Position numbers and translations under genes: made by a program. Positions 50,164 to 62,195 of a stretch of DNA of 64,000 nt are shown one piece after another (the first letter of the stretch is position 1; the number at the start of each line of letters is the position of its first letter). The DNA is from an uncultured Bacteriovoracaceae bacterium (lineage in GTDB: Bacteria; Bdellovibrionota; Bacteriovoracia; Bacteriovoracales; Bacteriovoracaceae), in the NCBI GenBank assembly GCA_937930825.1, contig CALHBL010000147.1:964-64963 (forward strand). The letters are read 5' to 3'. The notes under the pieces are model-generated. The model did no database searches. It had not been told where the DNA came from and saw only the letters and a program-made list of their open reading frames with translations.

Positions 50164-51873
50164 ATGACAAAGCTTGAAGATGTACTAAAAGACTTCGATA
50201 GACGCCTAAGCTCTATAGAAAAACAACTTTCAAAAATACACCAATCAGATCCTCCCATTACTAACATAAATAAAAATGTGTCCATTGCTTCAAGAGATCA
50301 ACAAAAGACTGAATCAAAAAGTAATATTTCAAAACCCATTAATACAAGTTTTCAACATAAGAAACCAGTTAATGACTCATCAATTGATTCGTCTTCTGTA
50401 TTAGCAATTATTGGAATCATTTTTGTAATTCTAGCAGGTGTCTTTTTTATAAAAATTACCATTGATTCGGGATGGCTTACTCCAATTCGTCAAATTTTAT
50501 TAGCAACAGGAACAGGCTTAGTTTTTTTCATCATTCCACAGTTTTTTCCTAAAGCTGAAAAGGAGTATGGAGCTCTCCTGGCTGGAGCAGGTACGACAAT
50601 TCTACACTTAACTTGGCTAGGAGCTTATTTTTATCACCATATTTTAAATGCTAACTCAGCACTTATATGTGCTACCTTAGTTGGTATATTTTCAATTTTC
50701 GCTAACTTTAATAAAGGTAACCGTGCTTATATTTTAGTTGCAATGGCGGGAACTTATTTATCAGCACCTATAATTGGTTACAATACTGGTGAACTCTCTG
50801 TGCTTTCTGTTTTTCTAATTATTTGGAACATATCCTTCTCTGCCACTTCTTTAGTTAATAAACGTCGTGATATCATGCTCATTGCTAGTTACTATGCCGT
50901 ATTTACCGTTTTATTATTATCAGAAAAAGCATCTGGCTATAATCAGCAAAGCGATCTATTAATTTTACAACTTATCCAGTTCGTAATTTTCTCATCTGCA
51001 ATGACTACTTATTCTGTTTACCACAAAAGCCCTTTTTCTTCGGACGAAAGCGTCGCTTTACTACCTTTACTACTACTATTTTACTTTTCTACAGGACACT
51101 TAATCTCCTCTATTAATCCTAGTTTTGCTCCATGGTTTGGAATAACTATTGGTGGACTTGTCTTAGGAATTTATTTATTTGCGAAATCTTACCTTAAAAG
51201 TGACATCAAAAGTGGACCTCCATTAACTGCTTTCTCTGCAATTACTTTTGTTCATAGCTTTTACTTCCAGTTACTAAGTGAGTCAGTCAAACCTCTTGCT
51301 GCCTTGATCATTGGAGTTATCATAATGGCGATATGGAGCCAGAGTGAAAAAGCTAGAAAGCAGTTTTTTTGGCCTTTAATGGTTCTTTTTTCAACCTTTG
51401 TTTACGGCGCAATTTTGACAATTATATTAACGAAATCAATAGGAGAGATTTATTTATATAACTGGGCATATGGAGTTTTTGCATTAGTTGCTGTAGTTAA
51501 ACTGGCTTCAAACAAGAATATTGAATCTGACACAATAAAGTATTCACCCCTACTTCTAGGGTTTGGACACCTTCAAGTAATGTTAGGTCTATACAGGTTT
51601 TCACAGCAAATATCCTGGTCAGGAGCTCTTTTTGTAACTATCACTTGGGGTGTTTATGCTGCGATCATTCTTTCAATTTCTTACTGGCGTCGAGATAAAA
51701 CTCTAGGTAATTCAGCTCTGACTATTTTACTGGCAGTAAGCTTAAAAGCATTCTTTTATGACTTAACTAATACAAGTAACCTTATTCGAGTGGGCTGCCT
51801 TTTAGCTGAAGGTCTTCTGCTGTATTGCTGTGGTTGGATCTTTAAGAAAATGCAGCAATGGGATGAAAATTAA
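50164..51873 (+). CDS. DUF2339-type polytopic membrane protein
   Basis: N-terminal coiled segment (LEDVLKDFDRRLSSIEKQL), a spacer, then ~15 TM helices, which is the characteristic DUF2339 layout. Confidence 0.6.
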   Translation: MTKLEDVLKDFDRRLSSIEKQLSKIHQSDPPITNINKNVSIASRDQQKTESKSNISKPINTSFQHKKPVNDSSIDSSSVLAIIGIIFVILAGVFFIKITIDSGWLTPIRQILLATGTGLVFFIIPQFFPKAEKEYGALLAGAGTTILHLTWLGAYFYHHILNANSALICATLVGIFSIFANFNKGNRAYILVAMAGTYLSAPIIGYNTGELSVLSVFLIIWNISFSATSLVNKRRDIMLIASYYAVFTVLLLSEKASGYNQQSDLLILQLIQFVIFSSAMTTYSVYHKSPFSSDESVALLPLLLLFYFSTGHLISSINPSFAPWFGITIGGLVLGIYLFAKSYLKSDIKSGPPLTAFSAITFVHSFYFQLLSESVKPLAALIIGVIIMAIWSQSEKARKQFFWPLMVLFSTFVYGAILTIILTKSIGEIYLYNWAYGVFALVAVVKLASNKNIESDTIKYSPLLLGFGHLQVMLGLYRFSQQISWSGALFVTITWGVYAAIILSISYWRRDKTLGNSALTILLAVSLKAFFYDLTNTSNLIRVGCLLAEGLLLYCCGWIFKKMQQWDEN

Positions 51874-51904: not shown

Positions 51905-52004
51905 GAGAGATTCGAGCCCACCGTGGAACGGGCGAGGATTCGAGAATGAGGAGTTCAAGCTTGTTTTAGAATATAGAATTTAGCGGAAAAAATGGCGGAG
52001 ATGG
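51905..52004 (-). repeat. tRNA-Ser-derived direct repeat D2 (overlaps the 3' 12 nt of tRNA-Ser GCU)
   Basis: GAGAGATTCGAGCCCACCGTGGAACGGGCGAGGATTCGAGAATGAGGAGTTCAAGCTTG...TGGCGGAGATGG. Its start mimics the tRNA T-arm string GGAGAGATTCGAA. Confidence 0.8.
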
Positions 52005-52085
52005 AGAGATTCGAACTCTCGGAACGGTCAGACCGTTCGACACCTTAGCAAGGTGCTCCCTTCGACCACTCGGGCACATCTCCGC
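51993..52085 (-). tRNA. tRNA-Ser (anticodon GCU), CCA encoded
   Basis: Hand fold: acceptor GCGGAGA/TCTCCGC, anticodon arm GCACC-TTGCTAA-GGTGT, long variable arm, T-arm GAGAG-TTCGAAT-CTCTC. 93 nt. Confidence 0.9.
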
Positions 52086-52103: not shown

Positions 52104-52191
52104 TGGCGGAGGACACAGGATTCGAACCTGCGGACCCGTTAAGGTCAATGGTTTTCAAAACCACCGCTTTCGACCACTCAGCCAATCCTCC
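52104..52191 (-). tRNA. tRNA-Ser (anticodon UGA), CCA encoded
   Basis: Hand fold: acceptor GGAGGAT/GTCCTCC, anticodon arm GTGGT-TTTGAAA-ACCAT, long variable arm, T-arm GCAGG-TTCGAAT-CCTGT. 88 nt. Confidence 0.9.
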
Positions 52192-52244: not shown

Positions 52245-55200
52245 TTACCTAGATAAGGTCATGATTTGATTCTTTATTTTTGCTTGATCTGGCGCATTAG
52301 GAAATAACTTTAAATAGGTTCGAAACTCTTCAATGGCCAAGCTGCCCTGCCCAATTCCTTGGTAGATGAAGGCGAGCTGCTTGCGTATCATAGGATTGCT
52401 AGGAGCTTTCTTTTTTGCTCGTAAATAGAGCTCTCTAGCTATGTCATAGCGACTTTGGTTCAACTTAATCCAGCCCAAGGACATTAATGACTCAACATTT
52501 CTTGGTTGAATTTGGATTGCCTTTTCTAGATTCTTCGTTGATTCTGTGTATTCTCCAATAAGCCGTTGAGTTTCTCCTAGGACATAGTGGCCGTGATAGA
52601 TTTTCGGGTTATTCTCAATTTCTTTCTTACCAGCTGCTATAGCTTCTTTGTATTTCTTCATTTTCAAATAAACTTTTGCCTTTAAGTAATAAACTTGGGG
52701 GTAGGTCGAAAGTCTCTTTGTAACTCCATCAAGAGCAATTAAAGCTTCACCATATCTCCTAAGATCTGCCAGGGTACTGCCAAGTAAAAGTCTAGTTTTT
52801 ACATCCCCAGGATTAATCTCAATTAAGGCTTTAGCATTGGTTACTATATCTACATTTTTTTCCTCTATTTGTGCCGCTCTAATTAAGAACTCATAGAAAG
52901 CAGGGTCGCTACTACGAAGTTTTTCTACTTTGTTTTTAACTTCCTTAAATTGAGCAAGTTGGCCATTTCTATAGAAGAGCGTAGCAATATCACCCATTAA
53001 CCTTGGGTTATCCGCATTCTTGTCTAACTCAGTTTGAAGGTAACCAATAGCTGCCTCGGCCCCATCAAGCTCATACAAAATTTCAGCATAGAGAGACTTA
53101 TAATCTATATTCAACGGATCCAAAGTCATCGCCTCTGCTAACTTAGATTTACTTTCTTTGTATTGCCTTGTCCTAGAGTATATTTTTGCCATTAGAAAAT
53201 AGTCCTCATCTCTTAACGGGTTTTGACCTACAGATTGACTAAGCATTCTAATTGCAAGATGCCTCTTACCACTCAATGCGTAGAAATGGCCCACTGTTGA
53301 GCTGTAGAGTGGATGATTTCTTAAGGGAGAATTACTTATTATATTCACATGAGACTGAGCCTCCTTCATCTTATTAGATTCTGATAATGCCTTAACCAAG
53401 AGAAAGTTTACACCAGGGTGAGTTGGAAATTCTTTTTTCAAAAAAGCTAAAGTATTAATAGCTGACTCGTAGAAGCCTCTAAGAATTTGCAGGTTAACAA
53501 GATGAAGATTTGCAGGTAAAAAACGATTTTCTAAATCGACGGCCTCTATGGCAACCTGAAATGCTTCACGCCATTTTCTTTCTCTTGTTAATTTTTTAGA
53601 TGTTCTAATTAGGTCGATCGCCTTAGACTCTAAAATCAGCTTTTCAGCAATTTCTCCTCCACCGATCTCCAAGCTGGCTAACTTAGATCTCAAGCTGTCA
53701 GTATCATGAATCTTAAGCGCTTTTTGAAATAAAGCTGCTGCGGTTTTAACATCTTTATTAAATGCACTTAGAATACCTACATTTTCTAAGTATTCAGCAT
53801 AGAATGAAGGTGCTCCTTCATATCTAAGCTTTTCAATCTTTTTAAGAGTACTAGCATAGTTTTTAAAATCTTCATCTCTTAAAAGGTAGCGAGAGAGATC
53901 AAGCATAAGAGCAACACTTGATGGAAACTTCTTAAGAGCTGACAAAGTAACCTCTTTGCCTTTTTCATACTGTTCATCAAGAGTATAGTATTTAGACATC
54001 GCCAAATATGCCTCTAGTGGTTGATTAGGAATTGTTTTTAGCTTATCAAGTACTTTCTTTGCCTTTACAAGATCTCCAGTTTCAATTGATAGATCAAGGT
54101 AAAGCGACAAGAGCTTCAGAGATGGTTTCGCAACTCTTAAATAGTTTTCGATCAAATTAAGAGCGGAGTATACTTTCCCATTATTTCTATAAAAAAGCGC
54201 CGTTCCTATTGCTACATTTAAATCTTTAAAAATTTTGGATCTCGTAATTTTAATAAGATTAAATAGAATTGCAGCGCCTTTCGATTGGTTAGCTACATTA
54301 TTAAAAAGCTCACCGTAGGTAAGAATCAAGAAACCAAGTGCTGGATTATCTGTGAATTTAAATTCTGCCGATTTTAAAAAATGTGAACTTGCTCTTAACT
54401 TACCTAAATAGGTACCGACTCTATAATTTTTCAATCCCAGTTTAAAATGTTTCTCTGCCTTAGCAGGCTGCATAACCTCATAGGTTCTTGGCCCGCTTAT
54501 AGATAAATACTGAGGTTTAAATACCTTTACTTCTTCTGGCTTATCATCAAATAAAGTGAGGTAAAGTATAGCGATGATCACGATTGCCAGAATAGGGGAC
54601 AGCTTCTTTTTCTTTTCTATATCATCTTCTGATTCAGCACTCTCTTTCTTTGGTTTTCCACTCTTTTCTATTTTATTTTCACGCTCTTCTTTAGCTATTT
54701 GCTTTTCCAGACTATTTGTTTCCGCCTTCAATTCAACTAAAGCATGCTTGTCAACAACCTTAGTCGACTCATTGAAGTCAATATCTTCAGGAGCATCCTC
54801 TAGCGCAGCTTTTTCTTCAGCTTCTTTTTTCAGCTCTTCTTCACGTATCAGCCTAGCCTTTAGTTCCTCTTGCTCTTTGAAAAGTCTAAGTGCATCTTGA
54901 TTGACGACAGTTTTAATCTCATCATCAGATTCTACTGGAGCTTTAAGTGGATTTTTAAGAACAACAGTCTTATCTATTTTTTCTTCTTCAACCTTTCTCT
55001 TTTCAGCTTCAATACGCTCCAGTTCTTCATTTCTAATTCTTTCTTCAGCTTCAGCTTCTTCGATAACTTTATATTTCTCTTCCAATTTATCGTAATCGAC
55101 TATTTCAGATTTTTCCTCTTTAGAGAATTTAAACTCTTTGTGTAATTCTTTCTTATGTTGCTTCTCTAGCTCCTCTAATTCTTTTATTTTTTCTAATTTT

Positions 55201-55490
55201 TGTAATTCTTTTTCTTCTCTTCTCGCTTTCTCTTTTAGATTCGCTAAAGAAATCCTCGCAACAGTAGAGTCTCCAGAAATTTCTGAAGATTTTTCTCCCA
55301 TTGCAAGCTTAGTTAAGTAAGTCGCAATCTCTTCATTATCTGCAATAGCGGTCCAATCTCCCACAGGAAAGTTTTGAACCTTTACTGTTCCAACTAAGTG
55401 ACCTTTTTCATAAAGCTCACCCACCTGTTGAAGCTGAAAAGGGCCAACAATTCTTCCGCCTTTTAATTTCAGTCTGTATTTTTTTGCCAT
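52245..55490 (-). CDS. GYF_2(DUF4339)-like N-terminus / Glu-Lys-rich coiled coil / single TM / long TPR array protein (1081 aa)
   Basis: YRLKLKGGRIVGPFQLQQVGELYEKGHLVGTVKVQNFPVGDWTAI (GYF_2-like), an EK-rich ~250 aa stretch, the TM helix LSPILAIVIIAILYLTLF, then many 34-aa TPR-like repeats. Confidence 0.65.
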   Translation of the reverse strand: MAKKYRLKLKGGRIVGPFQLQQVGELYEKGHLVGTVKVQNFPVGDWTAIADNEEIATYLTKLAMGEKSSEISGDSTVARISLANLKEKARREEKELQKLEKIKELEELEKQHKKELHKEFKFSKEEKSEIVDYDKLEEKYKVIEEAEAEERIRNEELERIEAEKRKVEEEKIDKTVVLKNPLKAPVESDDEIKTVVNQDALRLFKEQEELKARLIREEELKKEAEEKAALEDAPEDIDFNESTKVVDKHALVELKAETNSLEKQIAKEERENKIEKSGKPKKESAESEDDIEKKKKLSPILAIVIIAILYLTLFDDKPEEVKVFKPQYLSISGPRTYEVMQPAKAEKHFKLGLKNYRVGTYLGKLRASSHFLKSAEFKFTDNPALGFLILTYGELFNNVANQSKGAAILFNLIKITRSKIFKDLNVAIGTALFYRNNGKVYSALNLIENYLRVAKPSLKLLSLYLDLSIETGDLVKAKKVLDKLKTIPNQPLEAYLAMSKYYTLDEQYEKGKEVTLSALKKFPSSVALMLDLSRYLLRDEDFKNYASTLKKIEKLRYEGAPSFYAEYLENVGILSAFNKDVKTAAALFQKALKIHDTDSLRSKLASLEIGGGEIAEKLILESKAIDLIRTSKKLTRERKWREAFQVAIEAVDLENRFLPANLHLVNLQILRGFYESAINTLAFLKKEFPTHPGVNFLLVKALSESNKMKEAQSHVNIISNSPLRNHPLYSSTVGHFYALSGKRHLAIRMLSQSVGQNPLRDEDYFLMAKIYSRTRQYKESKSKLAEAMTLDPLNIDYKSLYAEILYELDGAEAAIGYLQTELDKNADNPRLMGDIATLFYRNGQLAQFKEVKNKVEKLRSSDPAFYEFLIRAAQIEEKNVDIVTNAKALIEINPGDVKTRLLLGSTLADLRRYGEALIALDGVTKRLSTYPQVYYLKAKVYLKMKKYKEAIAAGKKEIENNPKIYHGHYVLGETQRLIGEYTESTKNLEKAIQIQPRNVESLMSLGWIKLNQSRYDIARELYLRAKKKAPSNPMIRKQLAFIYQGIGQGSLAIEEFRTYLKLFPNAPDQAKIKNQIMTLSR

Positions 55491-55495
55491 GGCAC

Positions 55496-56644
55496 CTATA
55501 TGCTTAAGACTAGTCCTATTATTATAGATGATAGCAAAAATATTGAGTTAAATAGGCTAAATCTGCTCCCAAAGCTTTCCTTTGAGTTTTCTGTGATAAT
55601 CCGAATAAACAAACACAATAGTAAACAAGTGTATGCTGAAAAAAAACCAAGAAGAATAGAGAAAGTACCCGTAAGCTTTGAGTCACTTATGAGAAGATTA
55701 TACATATTATAAAAAGGACCTGGGATAACACCTATAAATAGTAAGAGAGCAACAACTCTCAGCTGAATCCTCTCAAGTATATCGGGTAGTTCCTGAACTA
55801 AAAGGTAAGGTATACTAAGAAAGAAGCAGAGCCAATAGTAAATCGGCATTATCTCAATTGAGCTAAGGTTCGGAAAAAACATTAAACAAGCAAGGAGGAG
55901 GAGCTCTACACTAAGCTTTCCTGATCTTAAAGCGATTGATATTCTTCGATTAAAAATACCTATAATGAGAAGAAGTCCAAGAAATGGAAATAAAGGGCTA
56001 TCGAAATGAAAATAAGTTAATGAATCACTAAAGACTGTGAAAAGTAAGATACTAAATACTCTCTGACCAAGACTATATGAAAAAGTATGAGAGCTATTTT
56101 TGATAAGCGAGAAAGGGGCAAGAAAATAATTTAAAGGAACTAGCAGCATTACCACAACTTTACTTAGGGGTGATTCGCTTCCATGATAGAGTAAGCCCAA
56201 GGAAAGTATTGCACTCAATAAAAATAGGCAAAATGGTACGTTTGCTTCTTTAGTTCCTTTAAAAGAAGTGGACCTAAAGATGTCAACAAAGTATGAGCCT
56301 ATCAGAATACAGACTTTAACAGGGTAGCTTATATCTGAAGCCATTAAGATTAAAACTAATAAAGATAACTCACTAAATTTTACTAGAGTTGCAGTCCCAG
56401 GCTTATCAATATGAAATTCTTCTATTACTGAAAAGAAGAGAAGTTCAAGAAGTAGTGGTAAAAACAACACCTTATTTTCAGTAAAGCCAAATAACGATGA
56501 ATCGAAGAAAGCAATATAGCCAATTATTAGAGTTAATATTATCCGGCTAAGTAGATTTATATGCTTACTGGATTCGGGTACTAAATTCCGCAGCACTAAG
56601 AAGAGAGCTTGGACAAACAGGGGAGTTGCTATCATATAGTTCAC
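55496..56644 (-). CDS. Polytopic membrane protein (382 aa); positional and weak-motif counterpart of an antiporter-like complex I subunit (NuoN/M-like?)
   Basis: About 11 TM helices. LLFIGVIPGPFYNMY resembles the (S/A)LAG(I/L)PPLSGF motif seen in the nuoN and nuoM of this window. 4-nt overlap with the upstream ORF. Confidence 0.4.
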   Translation of the reverse strand: MNYMIATPLFVQALFLVLRNLVPESSKHINLLSRIILTLIIGYIAFFDSSLFGFTENKVLFLPLLLELLFFSVIEEFHIDKPGTATLVKFSELSLLVLILMASDISYPVKVCILIGSYFVDIFRSTSFKGTKEANVPFCLFLLSAILSLGLLYHGSESPLSKVVVMLLVPLNYFLAPFSLIKNSSHTFSYSLGQRVFSILLFTVFSDSLTYFHFDSPLFPFLGLLLIIGIFNRRISIALRSGKLSVELLLLACLMFFPNLSSIEIMPIYYWLCFFLSIPYLLVQELPDILERIQLRVVALLLFIGVIPGPFYNMYNLLISDSKLTGTFSILLGFFSAYTCLLLCLFIRIITENSKESFGSRFSLFNSIFLLSSIIIGLVLSI

Positions 56645-57627
56645 TGAGCTTCCCCTACCTTCTTCTTAACTCCTAGGATAAAAGATATGAATGTAATGGT
56701 TAATAAGTAAACTCTTAAATGAACCTCGGGAAAAAAATAACAAGAGATCAGGCAAGCACTCATTCCTATGAACTGTAAATTTATTCCATCTATAACTTTA
56801 GCTAAATAAGGCTGAAGCCTGCTATACAATACTTGAACTGCAGCACACCCGAACAATATAAACGAAAACTTGCTCTCCAATTGAAAAATGAAAATGATAA
56901 GAAGGGGGAGGACAGAATATAAAGACCTTCTACTTCTAGAAATAACCAGATAAGTGCAAATCCCAAAAAACACAATACTCGAAAACAAAGGACTAACACT
57001 AAGGTAGCTAAAATAAATACTTAAAAGAATAATTATGTTTAATGAAAAGAGACACTTATTAGAGCGGATATAATTTAATGAAAAAACTCCAATACTATAG
57101 AGATAGAAGTAGCTAATTAAGTTACTATTGATTCTTGGTAGCATTTGATTTGAGTAATCAGATGCTACAACAACTGAGCTACTAGACCCAGCAAGTTTGT
57201 TAAAAACCATCGTTAGAGACAAAAAGCCAAACAGTGGAAGAGCAAGAATTGAGTATTTCTTTCTTATCTGCCTAGGCAGGATCATTAAAAACAAAAAAAC
57301 ACTCATCGTGAGATTTAATTCTAAAGAAATCGCATCTACTTCTAGAATCCCAATAAAGAGAAGGATAGGGATTGGTGAAAGTATATTTATTTCTTTATTA
57401 GTTGTTAAAAATTCATTCATTACATAAAGCAGCACGAAGCCTAAGGAAGATGCTAAGTAATAATTACTGTAAAGACTATTTTGCTTAACGTATCCTAAAT
57501 AACTAACGACCGCTAAACTAATGATCAAAACCAAAGCGCAAAACATAACAACTTTCTTTTTTAAAGGCAAAAAGTTACAGATAAAAAGGATGAGTATCAG
57601 AGCAAGACAGATCATGCAGCAACCCAA
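56641..57627 (-). CDS. Polytopic membrane protein (328 aa); weak NuoN/M-like
   Basis: ILLFIGILEVDAISL versus bona fide NuoN LVLFIGIETLSILSY in the same window. About 9-10 TM helices. Overlapping start and stop. Confidence 0.4.
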   Translation of the reverse strand: MGCCMICLALILILFICNFLPLKKKVVMFCALVLIISLAVVSYLGYVKQNSLYSNYYLASSLGFVLLYVMNEFLTTNKEINILSPIPILLFIGILEVDAISLELNLTMSVFLFLMILPRQIRKKYSILALPLFGFLSLTMVFNKLAGSSSSVVVASDYSNQMLPRINSNLISYFYLYSIGVFSLNYIRSNKCLFSLNIIILLSIYFSYLSVSPLFSSIVFFGICTYLVISRSRRSLYSVLPLLIIFIFQLESKFSFILFGCAAVQVLYSRLQPYLAKVIDGINLQFIGMSACLISCYFFPEVHLRVYLLTITFISFILGVKKKVGEAQ

Positions 57628-58946
57628 ATAATCATAGCAATTGAGATTATTGAAAAAAGGCTAAAGGCTACTGTATTAGTCACTCCACGAAATGTTGGTA
57701 TTGATAAAGCAGTTCTATCGTCTACTTTTATGGGGTATTCCCTTTGTGTATATTTCCGACCTGGATATAATTCAAACTGAAACTTCAATTTCTGATAAAT
57801 AAATTTAAGATGATATTCTATTTCTTCATTTTTCTTTACATAGAAGCCAAAAATCAATGTTAGCAGCAGAGCAATTAATTGATAATAAAATATAATACTA
57901 CCGATACTCCATGTCAGAGGCAATATACTACCCAGGAATAGCGTAATCCTAATCACTTCATCTTTAAAGCTGTAACTCTTTTTAACATCTTCTAGGGCAT
58001 AGAGCGAAAGAAAGGGAAAGTCATATAATACCAAAAAGAATATCATAGGAAGCGACATTTCAGAGATTCCATAGAGAATAGATGATGGTGCTAAAGGCAG
58101 GCCAGAGAAAATATAGAGAATCAGAGCAAGGGTGGTAATTTGTTGATAGCCTAAAGATGACTTTTTATTATCTTTAAGTAGATTCTTTATCTCGTAGAAT
58201 AATATTTTTTTTAAATAACGACATTCTATAAAGATAAGCAACAGGGGTATTACTATCATTGGGCTTAAATGATTATAAAACGATAAGTAAGACCCGCAAG
58301 ATATGAGATATGCCATCGTTAAAGAATCGGTATCCCTGAATAAAGAAATTAGGATTAAGAAGAATCCAACTAGTATATAATACGAGCTAAAGAACTCACT
58401 CGACATTGTGGGAATTAATACTATCAACAAAAGAAGATTCACTTGTGACAGCTTATCTTTGTTATTCTCAAAGGCCAGTAAGAAACTCAATGGAATCAGT
58501 GCTAAACTAAAGTATGTCCTCCACGAAGCCAAAGGTGAAAGAAGAAGTAAACTTAGGATAATAATATACAGAAATAGATTATCTATAGATCTAGTCACAA
58601 ACTTCTTGCAAACTACATAGAGGAGTGAAAAAATAAAGTTATATTCAGTAGGTGCACTGAGAAAGGCCAGTAGTGTAAAGATGCTTATCATAAAGAGCGA
58701 TTCGAAGAGACTTTCTCTGCTCAGTATTTTCCCTCCATTATCGTAACAAGAAAAAAGTATTAAAAAGATAGGAAGTAGATTTAAGCTTATTTCCTTCAAA
58801 AAGATATAGCTAAGAGATCCCATTAGAACGATCAAGGGCAGAGTATAAGTTTGCTTAATTTTCCTATAGATTGCACTTTCTACTTTCAATGGAAGTAGTA
58901 ACAGCATCATCAGAAAACTCACAAAGGCCAAGCCAAATAACATCAA
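57612..58946 (-). CDS. Polytopic membrane protein (444 aa) with a C-terminal amphipathic helix plus terminal TM; positional counterpart of NuoL
   Basis: IFSGLPLAPSS resembles the (A/S)GxPPxxGF motif. The tail KKNEEIEYHLKFIYQKLKFQFELY, a loop and a final TM (AFSLFSIISIAMIIWVAA) mimic the lateral helix plus anchor layout of NuoL. Confidence 0.4.
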   Translation of the reverse strand: MMLFGLAFVSFLMMLLLLPLKVESAIYRKIKQTYTLPLIVLMGSLSYIFLKEISLNLLPIFLILFSCYDNGGKILSRESLFESLFMISIFTLLAFLSAPTEYNFIFSLLYVVCKKFVTRSIDNLFLYIIILSLLLLSPLASWRTYFSLALIPLSFLLAFENNKDKLSQVNLLLLIVLIPTMSSEFFSSYYILVGFFLILISLFRDTDSLTMAYLISCGSYLSFYNHLSPMIVIPLLLIFIECRYLKKILFYEIKNLLKDNKKSSLGYQQITTLALILYIFSGLPLAPSSILYGISEMSLPMIFFLVLYDFPFLSLYALEDVKKSYSFKDEVIRITLFLGSILPLTWSIGSIIFYYQLIALLLTLIFGFYVKKNEEIEYHLKFIYQKLKFQFELYPGRKYTQREYPIKVDDRTALSIPTFRGVTNTVAFSLFSIISIAMIIWVAA

Positions 58947-59212
58947 GCCTCCATCTCATTTTTTCCTTTTTTTGTAATCACTCTATAAAGATACAAGAAA
59001 GAAAGAACAGTAAATGTTAGCAAAAAAGGCAGTACAACACTTAAGCTTCCATCCGGGCAGCTTAAGATAATCAGCAGCTTAAGCAGAACCACCAATCCTA
59101 TAATATAAGATGTTTGCATTACTTGAGTTCTACTTAAAACTCCCTTTATAATAAATAGGAGCATAGAGAATATTATTGTTTTAGTTATCAACTTCTTCTC
59201 CTTTAAAACCAA
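58943..59212 (-). CDS. Three-TM small membrane protein (89 aa); NuoK(ND4L)-like in size and topology
   Basis: SRTQVMQTSYIIGLVVLLKLL versus NuoK RRNLLxMLIGLEIMxN, with the Glu replaced. Basic C-terminus YRVITKKGK. Confidence 0.4.
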   Translation of the reverse strand: MVLKEKKLITKTIIFSMLLFIIKGVLSRTQVMQTSYIIGLVVLLKLLIILSCPDGSLSVVLPFLLTFTVLSFLYLYRVITKKGKNEMEA

Positions 59213-59621
59213 TCAATTCAAAGAAGGAAAATAATGTTAGAATAATTAAAAAGTATTCTGGAATATAATAAATTTCCTTTAATGAAAGAATGTCAGATTT
59301 ATAAAATTGAAAATCAATCTTATAAAATAAAAACACAAAGAATGGAGCAACTGATAAGTAGAGAAATAATTTCTCTAGTGTTGAAGATTCTCTTCTAGGT
59401 GGTTCTGAAATCCATAGTCTAGAGATATGTAAAAGATACAAGAAAGGAGTAACACTTATTGCTATCAATATTGCTTTTTCAGATCCAGCATAGATAAGAG
59501 TTAGAAAGATCAAAAAAATTATATATCCAACAAAGAAGCTGTTAGAGTTTTTAGTTTTTTTCAAAACTACGACTAAAGTAAAAATTGAAAGTAAGACAGA
59601 GAGTAGTAGTTCAAGCACCAT
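59181..59621 (-). CDS. Membrane protein (146 aa); NuoJ(ND6)-like in size and position
   Basis: KNSNSFFVGYIIFLIFLTLIYAGSEKAILIAISV loosely parallels NuoJ TNPVxSALxLIxxF...AEFLAxxQIxVY. Terminal TM with Glu (LFSFFELIG). Confidence 0.35.
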   Translation of the reverse strand: MVLELLLSVLLSIFTLVVVLKKTKNSNSFFVGYIIFLIFLTLIYAGSEKAILIAISVTPFLYLLHISRLWISEPPRRESSTLEKLFLYLSVAPFFVFLFYKIDFQFYKSDILSLKEIYYIPEYFLIILTLFSFFELIGFKGEEVDN

Positions 59622-60477
59622 TGTCCAGCCTTCTTGCAGATCTTATCGATGAGAATCTAAATACCCAAAAAATTATGATACTGAATACGAACTTTGCGAT
59701 TAAGCTTATCGTCTGCATAGATACCGTAAAGAGACCTGGTGAGATATTTTGTTTTTCAATCATAGAGGGAAGTCCATATCCACCTAGAAAGCAATAGATA
59801 AAGAGCAGAATATAGCCATTCAAAGAGACATGATCTACGAGCTCAAAATCGTCACGAGGGTTCGACAATTCATCAATTACTAAATAGGCAAGAAAAGCAG
59901 CACCACATGGATTCCTAATAATAAAGTAATTACGTAAGCCAAACTCGCTGAAGCTTTTCTGGAATTGAACCATCTGCTCTAGAGATAGTGATGGGCTGAA
60001 AATCAAAAGAGAGTAGAAGACTATAAAAAGTGCTGGAATGCGCTTACATAGTCCTGAAACTTCATGATTAATGACGGCCCTATAAACTTCAGCAATCATT
60101 AATAAGACGAATATATACGTTAAGGAGTTTTCAACATTAATAATACCCAATGTAGCATCGCTGCCCATAAAGTCGAATCTATCACTCAAAGGTAAGTATA
60201 AAGAAGGTATAAAAGTTAAAATAAGGAGGATAACATTTTGAATAGTTCTCTTATTTCGTATATCTCCAACCCCACTTCTTTGAAGAAGCAGGCGGACTAA
60301 TGTTATCTTAAGTGCACTGAGAGAAACAAAGCTCTTTCTTTTAAATATTGTAGCAAACTCTTCTCTTATCCATAAAGAGAAGATGAGTAATGCTAGGTAC
60401 ACAAAAATAAAGTGTGAAGCTTTTAGGGCCTCAAGTAAGATATTCAATCTCAGCCTTTTGTTCTTCCTTTTTCCCAA
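59611..60477 (-). CDS. Polytopic membrane protein (288 aa) with four collinear NuoH(ND1)-like motif matches
   Basis: VRLLLQRSGVGDI (cf. ERRLLGxxQxRxGPNxVG), DDFELVDH (cf. AExELVxG), FLGGYG (cf. FFGGW), KFVFSIIIFWVFRFSSIRSARRLD (cf. KxxxFxxxFIxIRAxLPRxRYDQ). Confidence 0.5.
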   Translation of the reverse strand: MGKRKNKRLRLNILLEALKASHFIFVYLALLIFSLWIREEFATIFKRKSFVSLSALKITLVRLLLQRSGVGDIRNKRTIQNVILLILTFIPSLYLPLSDRFDFMGSDATLGIINVENSLTYIFVLLMIAEVYRAVINHEVSGLCKRIPALFIVFYSLLIFSPSLSLEQMVQFQKSFSEFGLRNYFIIRNPCGAAFLAYLVIDELSNPRDDFELVDHVSLNGYILLFIYCFLGGYGLPSMIEKQNISPGLFTVSMQTISLIAKFVFSIIIFWVFRFSSIRSARRLDNGA

Positions 60478-60728
60478 AGGTAAGCACAGACAAACATTGC
60501 TAATACTATATAGTTTAATTCTGGAAAAGCGTTAAATAAAGAAGCCTGCTCCCTATTCAACTGTGTATAGGCAACCCATGATAAAAGAGGCAAGAGTATA
60601 ATGACTAGAGGCCCAAAGTTTTCCGATCTTTTTGATCGGACTTTTACCATCTTACCACTACCTAAATAAAGAAGGGCCCCAATAAAAAGGGCCCCTAAGG
60701 TAATTACGATAAGAAGACTGGCCGTCAT
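60450..60728 (-). CDS. Three-TM small membrane protein (92 aa); NuoA(ND3)-like
   Basis: The start codon directly abuts the nuoN stop. VRSKRSENFGP (cf. NuoA RxxSKNxPFESG) and C-terminal CAYLWEKG (cf. NuoA VYxWKKG). Confidence 0.45.
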   Translation of the reverse strand: MTASLLIVITLGALFIGALLYLGSGKMVKVRSKRSENFGPLVIILLPLLSWVAYTQLNREQASLFNAFPELNYIVLAMFVCAYLWEKGRTKG

Positions 60729-62195
60729 TTACTGAACAAACACTTTAGCGCCCTCAGCAACCATTAAAACCTTTTCCCAAAAAAGACCAAGTACTACAAC
60801 TGGTATAGTTAGCGCCACTACCACCCCCTGATTCACATAAGTAAAACCTTGTATTTCTTCTTCACTTTCACTTGGCTTCAATGTCATTATTCTCACTATT
60901 TTTAGATAGTAATAAAGAGCAATAACACTATTTATACCGGCGATTACTGCAAGGGTATAATACTTCTCTATAATCAATGCATTAAAAATATGAAACTTTG
61001 CAACAAAGCCACTCAAGGGAGGAATACCTGCGAGACTAAACATAAGAATAGTCATCATGATGGCCATCATAGGGTACCGATAGATAAGACCACTAAATCT
61101 TTCAAAGTGATCATTACCATACTTATCATTTACAAATGAAACGATATAGAAAGCTGCGAGTGTCATGAATAAGTAAGTGATTGAATAGAAGAGGACACTT
61201 CTTGTTCCAAGGTCATTCATAACAATAATACCAAGAATCATTACGCCTGCATGGGAGATTGAGGAATAAGCCAACATTCTCTTCACAGACTGTTGACCAA
61301 TTGCACTTATATTTCCAACTGTCATAGTGAGAGCAGCAATAATACTCAGTGTTCCAACCCAACCAACATTTAAAACACCAGGTTCAGCGAAGAAAGTTGT
61401 AGAAATACGAACAAGTGCCGCAAGTCCAGCAACCTTTGGCACTATACTAAAGAAGGTTGTTACAGGAATAGGTGAGCCTTCATAAACATCCGGTGCCCAC
61501 ATGTGAAAAGGGACACAAGCTATCTTGTAACCAATCCCTACTAGAAAAAGAAGAAAACTAGGAAGGACTATCAAAACTTGACCTTCTGATAAACTTTTAA
61601 GACCAACAGCAATATCAGTAAAGTTGATTGAGCCTACAACGCCAAAAATATGGCTCATTCCAAAGAGCATTATTCCAGAAGTAATGCCACCGTAGAGAGC
61701 ATACTTTAACCCCGCTTCTGCTGAGCGGTCATCATTCTTTTTTAAGCTCGCTAGTACATAGGAGAGAATTGAAAGGGTCTCAATACCAATAAAGAGAACC
61801 AACATATTATTAGCTGAAGAGAGTAGCATACCACCCACAAGAATACCTGTGGCCATAATGGCAAACTCAGGTTTTAAATTTCCTTGTATATCTCTACTCT
61901 GGCTCGTTAGGTAGACAGCACCAAGTGTACCAAGACACATTATAATTTTTGACAGAGTTGAAAATGAATCTATCACCACAGAGTTCGTGAAGATACTCAA
62001 GGGTTCTTTACCTAAGTTAAAAATCAAGAATACTAGAACTGATGTCAAGCCAATGCCAGCAGCAAGAAAGAGCAAGCCTCTTTCTTTTTTCTCTTCCTTA
62101 TATGTTGCCTCTATTAAAATTAGACCAAACATCGTCAAGCAGGCGAGCAGTTCTGGAACGTAATGACTAAGACTAGCTAAATAATTTATGCCCAT
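60729..62195 (-). CDS. nuoN: NADH-quinone oxidoreductase subunit N
   Basis: LFIGIETLSILSYVL, KYALYGG, PFHMWAPDVYEGSPIPVTTF, KRMLAYSSISHAG, SLAGIPPLSGFVAKF. Follows nuoM. Confidence 0.92.
   Translation of the reverse strand: MGINYLASLSHYVPELLACLTMFGLILIEATYKEEKKERGLLFLAAGIGLTSVLVFLIFNLGKEPLSIFTNSVVIDSFSTLSKIIMCLGTLGAVYLTSQSRDIQGNLKPEFAIMATGILVGGMLLSSANNMLVLFIGIETLSILSYVLASLKKNDDRSAEAGLKYALYGGITSGIMLFGMSHIFGVVGSINFTDIAVGLKSLSEGQVLIVLPSFLLFLVGIGYKIACVPFHMWAPDVYEGSPIPVTTFFSIVPKVAGLAALVRISTTFFAEPGVLNVGWVGTLSIIAALTMTVGNISAIGQQSVKRMLAYSSISHAGVMILGIIVMNDLGTRSVLFYSITYLFMTLAAFYIVSFVNDKYGNDHFERFSGLIYRYPMMAIMMTILMFSLAGIPPLSGFVAKFHIFNALIIEKYYTLAVIAGINSVIALYYYLKIVRIMTLKPSESEEEIQGFTYVNQGVVVALTIPVVVLGLFWEKVLMVAEGAKVFVQ

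Follow-up and report, generated by a model that had tools for sequence, protein, structure and literature searches.

A decayed second set of complex I membrane-arm genes behind nuoN in Bacteriovoracaceae

Seven open frames between nuoN and a TPR gene

We analysed a stretch of 64,000 nucleotides (the window) from an uncultured Bacteriovoracaceae bacterium (assembly GCA_937930825.1, contig CALHBL010000147.1), in which seven minus-strand open reading frames (ORFs) fill positions 55496-60728, between nuoN and a gene for a tetratricopeptide repeat (TPR) protein (Table 1). We call them A', H', J', K', L', M' and N', and together the array, or set 2, meaning the genes in the nuoN-TPR slot; set 1 denotes the conserved nuoAHJKLMN cluster upstream of it. 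By synteny, and for H' also directly, the array ORFs are decayed descendants of nuoA, H, J, K, L, M and N of a second nuo set. An earlier note, made from the letters alone, had described seven coupled hydrophobic ORFs behind nuoN, and their coordinates, sizes and overlaps (28, 11, 32, 4, 16 and 4 nt between consecutive ORFs) were reproduced exactly, with the ATG of A' abutting the TAA of nuoN. The overlap sizes vary with start-codon choice, and public gene calls place other starts for four of the ORFs; three exact array sequences are present in a public protein collection, as singleton or two-member clusters.

Chance ORFs could be ruled out, because none of the seven contains an in-frame stop, as against 4 to 56 stops in each other same-strand frame, and the summed log10 probability of finding no stop, computed from base composition, is about -52. 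Pseudogenes were likewise rejected, the frames being intact. T at codon position 2 has a frequency of 0.41-0.51 in the array, 0.43-0.46 in nuoM and nuoN, and 0.29 in the neighbouring TPR gene, and the summed content of A, I, L, M, F, V and W is 50-53% in all seven ORFs.

Table 1. Features of the window, with coordinates on the forward strand (TM, transmembrane segments)
Feature	Position	Strand	Size	Description
Set-1 nuoL, 3' end	63769..64000	-		lateral helix and last TM; runs off the window; ORF 63769-63960 aligns to the C-terminus of the relatives' 716-733-aa NuoL
Set-1 nuoM	62209..63741	-	510 aa	canonical; L031 orthologue matches Proton_antipo_M at 5.8e-72
Set-1 nuoN	60729..62195	-	488 aa	canonical; PF00361 1.2e-68; TIGR01770 5e-120
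Terminator-like hairpin	60672..60696	-		9-bp stem with 6 G-C pairs, then CTTTATTT (T-run); 33-57 nt after the nuoN stop
A'	60450..60728	-	92 aa	array position 1; decayed nuoA-position gene; 3 predicted TM
H'	59611..60477	-	288 aa	decayed nuoH; 8 predicted TM; best conserved of the seven
J'	59181..59621	-	146 aa	nuoJ-position gene, by position and TM number; 5 predicted TM
K'	58943..59212	-	89 aa	nuoK-position gene, by position and TM number; 3 predicted TM
L'	57612..58946	-	444 aa	nuoL-position gene, by position and TM map; ~12 predicted TM
M'	56641..57627	-	328 aa	nuoM-position gene, by position; ~10 predicted TM; sequence essentially randomised
N'	55496..56644	-	382 aa	nuoN-position gene, by position; ~12 predicted TM
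TPR protein gene	52245..55490	-	1081 aa	5 nt after N'; TPR families in Pfam; homologues ~1,040-1,090 aa
Two tRNA-Ser genes (GCT, TGA anticodons)	51993-52083, 52104-52191	-		after the TPR gene
DUF2339 membrane protein gene	50164-51873	+	569 aa	past the tRNA genes, on the opposite strand
ADP-ribosyltransferase gene	38812-39972	-	386 aa	C-terminal ADP-ribosyltransferase exoenzyme domain (PF03496, 8.6e-17)

The array in relatives, from canonical genes to deletion

The loci compared carry L-numbers, and 55 Bacteriovoracaceae/Halobacteriovorax loci were taken through a NuoN anchor with 10-kb flanks. NuoN of the nearest GTDB relatives is 76-78% identical to that of the window, and the window NuoM is 88% identical to that of L001; the closest relative found was a metagenome contig, L068 (NuoM 94% and NuoN 90% identical). 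A seven-ORF array between nuoN and a TPR gene of ~1,050 aa was present in 39 related genomes (38 GTDB loci and L068). It was complete in 38 of the 55 loci and interrupted by contig ends in nine more, and eight loci retain set 1 and the TPR gene with no array between them (L025, L036, L037, L039, L040, L043, L044 and L049). The order in L068 is set 1, then ORFs of 94/278/146/83/449/327/388 aa, then the TPR gene.

The size and recognizability of the genes in this slot vary widely among relatives (Table 2). In L031 all seven match Pfam, with E-values from 1e-26 to 1e-106: Oxidored_q4 (NuoA), NADHdh (NuoH), Oxidored_q3 (NuoJ), Oxidored_q2 (NuoK), Proton_antipo_M and Proton_antipo_N (NuoL), and Proton_antipo_M for both NuoM and NuoN. 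Intermediate arrays keep subsets that phmmer recognizes, namely H, K and N in L008, L009 and L029, H, L, M and N in L047, M and N in L048, and H in L019, and array positions 5-7 connect directly to canonical L, M or N in L013, L022, L030, L047, L048, L008, L009 and L029. Every array position is thus a proper Nuo subunit in some genome, which fixes the order as A-H-J-K-L-M-N; descent from these genes in this order, which the earlier note had read from order and sizes, is borne out by the Pfam-positive slot in relatives, by the intermediates and by the profile alignment of H' given below.

Table 2. Protein sizes and key residues in set 1 and in set 2 of selected loci
Set and locus	Sizes A/H/J/K/L/M/N (aa)	Key residues checked
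Set 1, relatives	128-183/~370-400/~175/101/703-733/510/488	every one kept
Set 2, L022 and L031	119/349/169/97/658/494/462	all kept except the NuoJ Tyr
Set 2, L013	120/353/159/97/626/487/456	some kept
Set 2, L009 (L008 and L029 similar)	116/355/153/103/538/387/448	as for all other arrays, the window included: essentially none kept (alignment unreliable for the most diverged)
Set 2, window	92/288/146/89/444/328/382	as above
Set 2, L017	93/253/143/80/442/272/363	as above

When set-2 proteins were searched by tblastn against the nuoN-TPR spacers of array-less genomes, no remnant was found apart from one weak match in L041, and these spacers are probably for the most part the 5' part of the TPR gene. 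L041 has a lone 256-aa hydrophobic ORF between nuoN and the TPR gene (L041:11458-12228), which weakly matches the L'-position protein of L033 (E 0.004) and may be a last remnant of an array.

Homology of the ORFs of the window

No array ORF of the window matched a Nuo, Mrp or hydrogenase subunit model of Pfam or NCBIfam at E <= 10. At that threshold NADHdh (PF00146) failed to match H' or any of nine clade members; the proteins at the NuoA, NuoJ and NuoK positions had no Pfam or NCBIfam match (PF00507, PF00499, PF00420) and hhalign probabilities of at most 22%, and L', M' and N' had no match to Proton_antipo_M (PF00361) and at most 33% with hhalign. The H' clade profile aligned to NuoH, both to that of set 1 (hhalign 89%, E 2e-6, 214 columns) and to canonical-like set-2 NuoH (95%, E 4.7e-8, 270 collinear columns). 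All remaining hhalign comparisons (42 off-diagonal and ~830 clade-by-clade) gave 33% or less, so H' alone is linked in this way; a nine-sequence H' profile found no chain among PDB sequences.

When the complete ORF sets of 61 loci were searched by phmmer and iteratively, matches to A' and H' came only from their own clade, A' matching the same-position ORFs of the window clade (phmmer and tblastn), and J', K', L', M' and N' were isolated, even from the nearest GTDB relatives, in phmmer, iterative hidden Markov model (HMM) and all-against-all graph searches of these loci. A profile of eight L' sequences recovered only three proteins, a SGxPGxPxSW remnant is the sole motif conserved in L' within the clade, and an AlphaFold2 model of L' from a three-sequence alignment was unusable (pLDDT 37, pTM 0.26). 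Of the homologies proposed ORF by ORF in the earlier note, that of H' to NuoH therefore stands, and the other six are assigned by synteny. Its motif matches fared similarly. Those in H' (DDFELVDH, FLGGYG and the R-rich C-terminus) fall in the right NuoH alignment columns; in A' only the ..YLWEKG end, compared with the NuoA tail ..W.KG.L.W, and the three-TM layout are consistent; and no alignment verifies those of M', N' and L'.

The layout of transmembrane (TM) segments can be compared further. NuoA, NuoJ and NuoK have three, five and three TM helices in established complex I structures, the numbers predicted for A', J' and K'; the same predictor gave 3, 8, 5 and 3 for the canonical-like A, H, J and K of L031 and 3, 5 and 3 for A, J and K of set 1. 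NuoL, NuoM and NuoN share a 14-TM core, and NuoL has 16 with its lateral helix and C-terminal anchor. For L', M' and N' 12, 10 and 12 helices are predicted, compared with 15-16, 13-14 and 13-14 in set 1 and canonical-like set 2, and at its C-terminus L' keeps a last TM preceded by ~55 aa without one. An Mrp-type operon was considered and rejected: no Mrp, Mnh or Pha model was matched, and the decay series leads to Nuo subunits.

Loss of key residues and rates of change

The residues checked were the TM5 Glu, TM7 Lys, TM8 His, TM11 Lys and TM12 Lys/Asp of NuoL, the Glu, Lys, Lys and Glu of NuoM, the Glu, Lys, Lys and Lys of NuoN, the two Glu of NuoK, the loop and RxRYDQ of NuoH, and the Tyr of NuoJ, all read from MAFFT alignments, which are unreliable for the most diverged members. 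Set-1 NuoM keeps all four of its key Glu and Lys residues. At aligned positions (a low-reliability alignment) H', K', L', M' and N' of the window have no conserved Glu, Lys or His of the proton path; A' lacks the YECG loop of NuoA and K' both membrane Glu of NuoK, with the same low reliability. The quinone-site loop between TM5 and TM6 of NuoH (PFDLxEGESELVxGYxxEY) is deleted in the window clade, and the C-terminal LPRxRYDQ is reduced to FRFSSIRSARRLD in H'. In most lineages, the window among them, the loop is gone, each antiporter-like subunit (L', M' and N' in the window) has 1-4 fewer predicted helices, and total array length is down by about a quarter; in a few lineages the arm is still canonical. 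Two suspicions of the earlier note are thereby upheld, namely that canonical carboxylates and lysines are substituted, within the limits of the alignment, and that the L-, M- and N-like proteins are shortened. With no catalytic residues and the quinone loop lost, the array would be expected to carry out neither redox-driven nor antiporter-type pumping.

Rates of change differ sharply between the two sets. Between species pairs, the nonsynonymous substitution rate (dN) is mostly 0.00-0.15 in set 1 (0.33 in the most divergent) versus 0.05-1.0 in set 2, a per-pair excess of roughly 5- to 80-fold; between L017 and L032, for example, set 1 is 99-100% identical and set 2 44-57%. In most pairs A', H', J' and K' are more conserved than N', with L' and M' the least conserved. 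For the same pair of loci, the synonymous rate (dS) of set 1 is 0.06-0.63, versus 0.9 for mfd, about 1-3 for the decayed array and saturation for the TPR gene; the low dS of set 1 suggests strong codon constraint or recombination in that set.

Residual selection on the array proteins

Residual selection was gauged chiefly from the window and L068, between which identities are 66% for A', 72% for H', 42% for J', 37% for K', 31% for L', 24% for M' and 37% for N'. Synonymous sites are saturated in this comparison, the proportion of synonymous differences (pS) equalling that of a codon-permuted control. The proportion of nonsynonymous differences (pN), tested by a shuffle-and-realign control and also by codon permutation, lay significantly below the former for J' (z -7.0), K' (z -3.9), L' (z -5.6) and N' (z -6.1), and was far below the latter for A' and H'. 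For M' it was not significantly low (z -1.9), its 24% identity being the random level of 25%. In nearly every species-pair comparison pN was less than pS.

Length and hydropathy persist even where identity does not. M' has 328 aa in the window and 327 aa in L068, with nine gap columns in the alignment, and the two hydropathy profiles correlate with r = 0.70 (z 5.8) versus 0.15 +- 0.09 for circular shifts; against L001 and L003 r is 0.36-0.38. Corresponding values for H', J', L' and N' against L068, L001 and L003 are 0.64-0.93 (among clade members 0.71-0.87 for J', 0.68-0.72 with z 5-6 for L', and 0.64-0.83 for N'), and the correlations with L068 stand at z 5-10 over circular-shift controls. 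Selection thus acts on membrane topology, length and the open frame, and hardly on residue identity. That the ORFs are translated and selected, as had been argued from their intactness, agrees with the absence of in-frame stops, with pN below pS and with the retained hydropathy.

Set 1 and the origin of the second set

The window ends within set-1 nuoL (721 aa at full length in L068), and the genes upstream were read from relatives. In 45 of the 45 relatives with upstream DNA, and in L068 too, set 1 consists of nuoAHJKLMN only, beside a divergent mfd, with none of nuoB-G or nuoI between its genes in those 45. The upstream nuoL-M-N is therefore the end of a membrane-arm-only cluster and not, as first supposed, of a classical operon. 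Since relatives carry conserved nuoA, H, J, K and L upstream, the array is a second set and not the sole nuoA, H, J and K genes in a rearranged operon, a possibility that the earlier note had raised against itself. For peripheral-arm genes the analysis covered the locus: tblastn with NuoD, NuoE, NuoF, NuoG and NuoI found no match in the window or within +-10 kb in any relative, and no peripheral-arm gene lies between membrane genes in any Bacteriovoracaceae locus. A Na+-NQR has been reported in Bacteriovorax marinus (PMC4014512).

A 2026 report (PMC13147790) places a nuoAHJKLMN cluster at a single conserved location in every member of the Bdellovibrionota, in addition to a distinct 14-gene set; that cluster is most likely set 1 of this locus. 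Set-1 NuoL (703-733 aa) differs from canonical NuoL by two insertions, ~27 aa ahead of TM15 and ~23 aa within the lateral helix (for example L031:6253-8409; loci L001-L055). These insertions occur with or without a decayed array, and the one in the helix is roughly as long as a single antiporter-like subunit is wide.

In five other Bdellovibrionota loci (L058, L062, L064/L065, L066 and L067) a complete-type nuo operon lies directly upstream of a homologous TPR gene; the order nuoA-B-C-D-E-F-G-H-I-J-K-L-M-N is fully seen in four of the five, and L058 is visible from nuoD on. The set-2 H, L and M proteins of L031 are 50, 44 and 44% identical to those of the L058 operon, versus 41, 37 and 38% to set 1, and the L062 operon gives similar identities. 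A neighbour-joining (NJ) tree of H, L and M, from which no support values were read out and in which long-branch members are basal, places set 2 of L031 and L022 with the complete-type operons, apart from set 1. Most likely, judging by synteny, identities and this tree, the array is the remnant of the membrane arm of a complete operon; it would have arisen from the 14-gene operon by loss of nuoB, C, D, E, F, G and I. Set 2 being closer to the complete-type operon, a recent tandem duplication of set 1 was rejected, and the array is probably not the paralogue of the upstream set for which it had been taken.

In other Bdellovibrionota we also noticed a third kind of nuo-like cluster, which directly precedes the complete operon and has the gene order ...H, ferredoxin-like, J, K, L, M, N (L062:1-6689, L064:1-6697, L066:1-6715 and L067:1-6678). 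It is 24-31% identical to set 1, and its NuoL-position protein (640-656 aa) has no Pfam match on record.

A hairpin before the array and the TPR gene behind it

The terminator-like hairpin after nuoN falls inside codons ~11-19 of A'. The strongest hairpin within 100 nt behind nuoN was ranked among equally long segments of its own locus, and it fell in the top 5% at 32 of the 56 loci, versus about three expected by chance. It recurs at the same site in the window and in L001, L003, L005, L010-L012, L015-L017, L019-L021, L024, L026-L029, L031-L037, L039, L040, L044 and L055; these include array-less genomes, where it resembles a classic terminator before the TPR gene. A top-10% hairpin accompanies 22 of the 26 small decayed arrays versus 3 of the 12 large ones (Fisher p = 6e-4, not phylogeny-corrected), being mostly missing where set 2 is still large or canonical-like. 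If the hairpin works as a terminator, the set-1 transcript would largely end after nuoN and the array would be made only by read-through, at a low level. From the sequence, we consider such low expression by read-through probable.

Downstream, a Shine-Dalgarno (SD)-like AGGTG overlaps the stop of N', before the TPR start. Homologues of the TPR gene follow set 2, follow nuoN directly, or follow a complete operon; more broadly, a TPR protein of ~980-1,090 aa always follows the last nuoN-type gene in this phylum (for example L058:11345-14278, and from ~20160 in L062, L064, L066 and L067). Its conserved N-terminal domain of ~50 aa (KKYRxKLxxGRxVGPF) is accompanied by a charged region, a single hydrophobic segment and TPRs at the C-terminus, and the protein may be connected with the assembly or function of complex I.

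Interpretation of the array

We consider the array to be a vestigial, catalytically dead membrane subcomplex that does not pump and is on a slow path to loss (probability about 0.7). Its proteins would still be inserted in the membrane and constrained only in topology, the residual constraint being strongest on the proximal H'-A' part, and the whole would be dispensable, because it has been repeatedly and cleanly deleted, in at least eight lineages. A vestigial array is preferred to a functional one on account of its very high rates of change, its repeated deletion and the terminator-like hairpin in front, and the evidence thus favours it over a new functional module such as the earlier note had envisaged.

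Several observations weigh against this interpretation. No frame is disrupted in 39 arrays of seven genes each, where a pseudogenised bacterial operon would normally be broken up and lost quickly, and this argues for a continuing role; hydropathy is conserved even in M', which means selection on protein; and the identity of H' between the window and L068 is a respectable constraint. Six of the seven ORFs are Nuo by position, with no sequence or structure method in support. The table of residue loss leans on alignments that are unreliable in diverged members, the proposed origin on an NJ tree prone to long-branch effects and on identities 6-9 points apart, and the hairpin is a consensus-type prediction whose association with decay is uncorrected for phylogeny.

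Frames intact in 39 genomes, pN below pS, and retained TM number and hydropathy would also suit a functional, catalytically dead structural module, retained as a pseudo-enzyme and needed as a scaffold or as a partner for set 1, for the TPR protein or for a peripheral arm whose genes lie elsewhere in the genome. The gradient of constraint from proximal to distal (H' and A' highest, L' and M' lowest) would fit a retained docking region in such a module, and N' is tightly coupled to the TPR gene. We regard it as credible if unlikely, given the clean deletion in at least eight lineages that keep set 1 and the TPR gene, the hairpin suggesting that expression is being lowered, and the random-level identity of M' between genomes whose NuoM differs by 6%, which is hard to reconcile with specific interfaces. 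Distinctly improbable, in our view, is a double-arm complex without a peripheral arm, of which the array would form the dead structural half together with set 1, whose NuoL has the lateral helix lengthened by ~23 aa, and perhaps with the TPR protein; only TM topology would be needed there, which would explain the conservation of frame, length and hydropathy without that of sequence, and such a complex, if real, would be a new kind of complex-I-derived machine and an extreme multi-subunit pseudo-enzyme under topology-only constraint.

A further reading is that the frames stay open solely because stop codons would be polar on the TPR gene, to which they are coupled in translation, the proteins themselves having no role; it would account for the tight start-stop overlaps, the 5 nt to the TPR start with the SD-like motif over the last stop, and an M' that retains frame and length at random-level identity. 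We find it very unlikely and rejected it as a sole cause, since hydropathy and TM positions are kept beyond what circular shifts give, position 2 is enriched in T, the low pN of J', K', L', N', A' and H' indicates constraint at the protein level, and in lineages lacking the array the TPR gene is expressed downstream of the equivalent hairpin. A still-active alternative ion arm, resembling an Mrp antiporter with non-canonical residues, is suggested by seven membrane subunits, three of them large and multi-TM, in the same operon as a conserved arm, and the L031 and L022 versions, which keep all pumping residues, could work so. For the window we put hardly any weight on it, because none of the conserved Glu, Lys and His of L, M, N, K and H is found, 1-4 predicted helices are lost per antiporter-like subunit, no Mrp, Mnh or Proton_antipo model matches at E <= 10, and the sequences change too quickly to preserve an ion path. 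Nearly negligible is the chance that the ORFs are fortuitous or unrelated to Nuo, or are the genome's only nuoA, H, J and K in a rearranged operon; six of the seven indeed have no detectable similarity outside their family and the window ends in nuoL, but the open-frame probability of ~1e-52, positional orthology, the H'-NuoH alignment and the conserved nuoA, H, J, K and L upstream in relatives all speak against it.

Known systems and implications

Within the phylum the nearest counterpart of the array is the complete 14-gene Bdellovibrionota nuo operon, which has the same slot before the TPR gene and the same order of membrane genes, and whose H, L and M are 44-50% identical to those of the L031 array; the window array differs from it in having neither nuoB-G and nuoI nor Pfam similarity. 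Marine actinomycetes (Salinispora, Streptomyces and Kocuria) carry a partial operon nuoAHJKLMN, proposed to belong to 'marine adaptation genes' (PMC6676996, citing Penn and Jensen 2012), likewise an extra seven-gene A-H-J-K-L-M-N set that includes nothing of the peripheral arm. Its members are annotated as ordinary Nuo subunits and presumed to pump, whereas HMMs no longer recognize the decayed window set, which sits downstream of another set confined to the membrane arm. The Mrp (Mnh/Pha) cation/proton antiporter is also encoded by a seven-gene membrane-only operon, akin to the membrane arm of complex I and with subunits that resemble NuoL/M/N and NuoK, but its order is MrpA-G, it has no separate NuoH or NuoA, and the ORFs of the window match no Mrp model. 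The cluster of PMC13147790 is membrane-arm-only, as is set 1, and the accessible part of that report makes no mention of a decayed downstream array.

The novelty claimed in the earlier note is weakened, because membrane-arm-only clusters have already been described. The homology that it proposed holds, and the literature searched contained no account of a decayed second array or of a graded series from canonical through unrecognizable to deleted. The array is probably not a new machine. Its interest lies rather in that one bacterial family shows the same seven genes from canonical through unrecognizable to deleted, a natural decay series that is useful for the study of complex I evolution and reveals what becomes of the membrane arm after its separation from the peripheral arm: catalytic charges and the quinone-site loop go early, the distal pump subunits L' and M' change fastest, the proximal H' and A' last longest, and topology outlives sequence. 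Seven frames staying open at constant length while one of them randomises challenges the expectation that useless bacterial operons break and vanish fast. In practical terms, ~5 kb of Halobacteriovorax-type genomes that now pass for 'hypothetical membrane proteins' can receive a nuo-derived annotation, and the culturable H. marinus offers a system in which to ask what membrane-arm-only nuo clusters do, a question that extends to the nuoAHJKLMN clusters of marine actinomycetes.

Neighbouring genes

The short ORFs listed at the two tRNA-Ser genes behind the TPR gene are artefacts of the tRNA sequences. Farther along the window, the ADP-ribosyltransferase gene lies among envelope genes, namely those for a family 2 glycosyltransferase, a UDP-GlcNAc 2-epimerase and an M15 peptidase.

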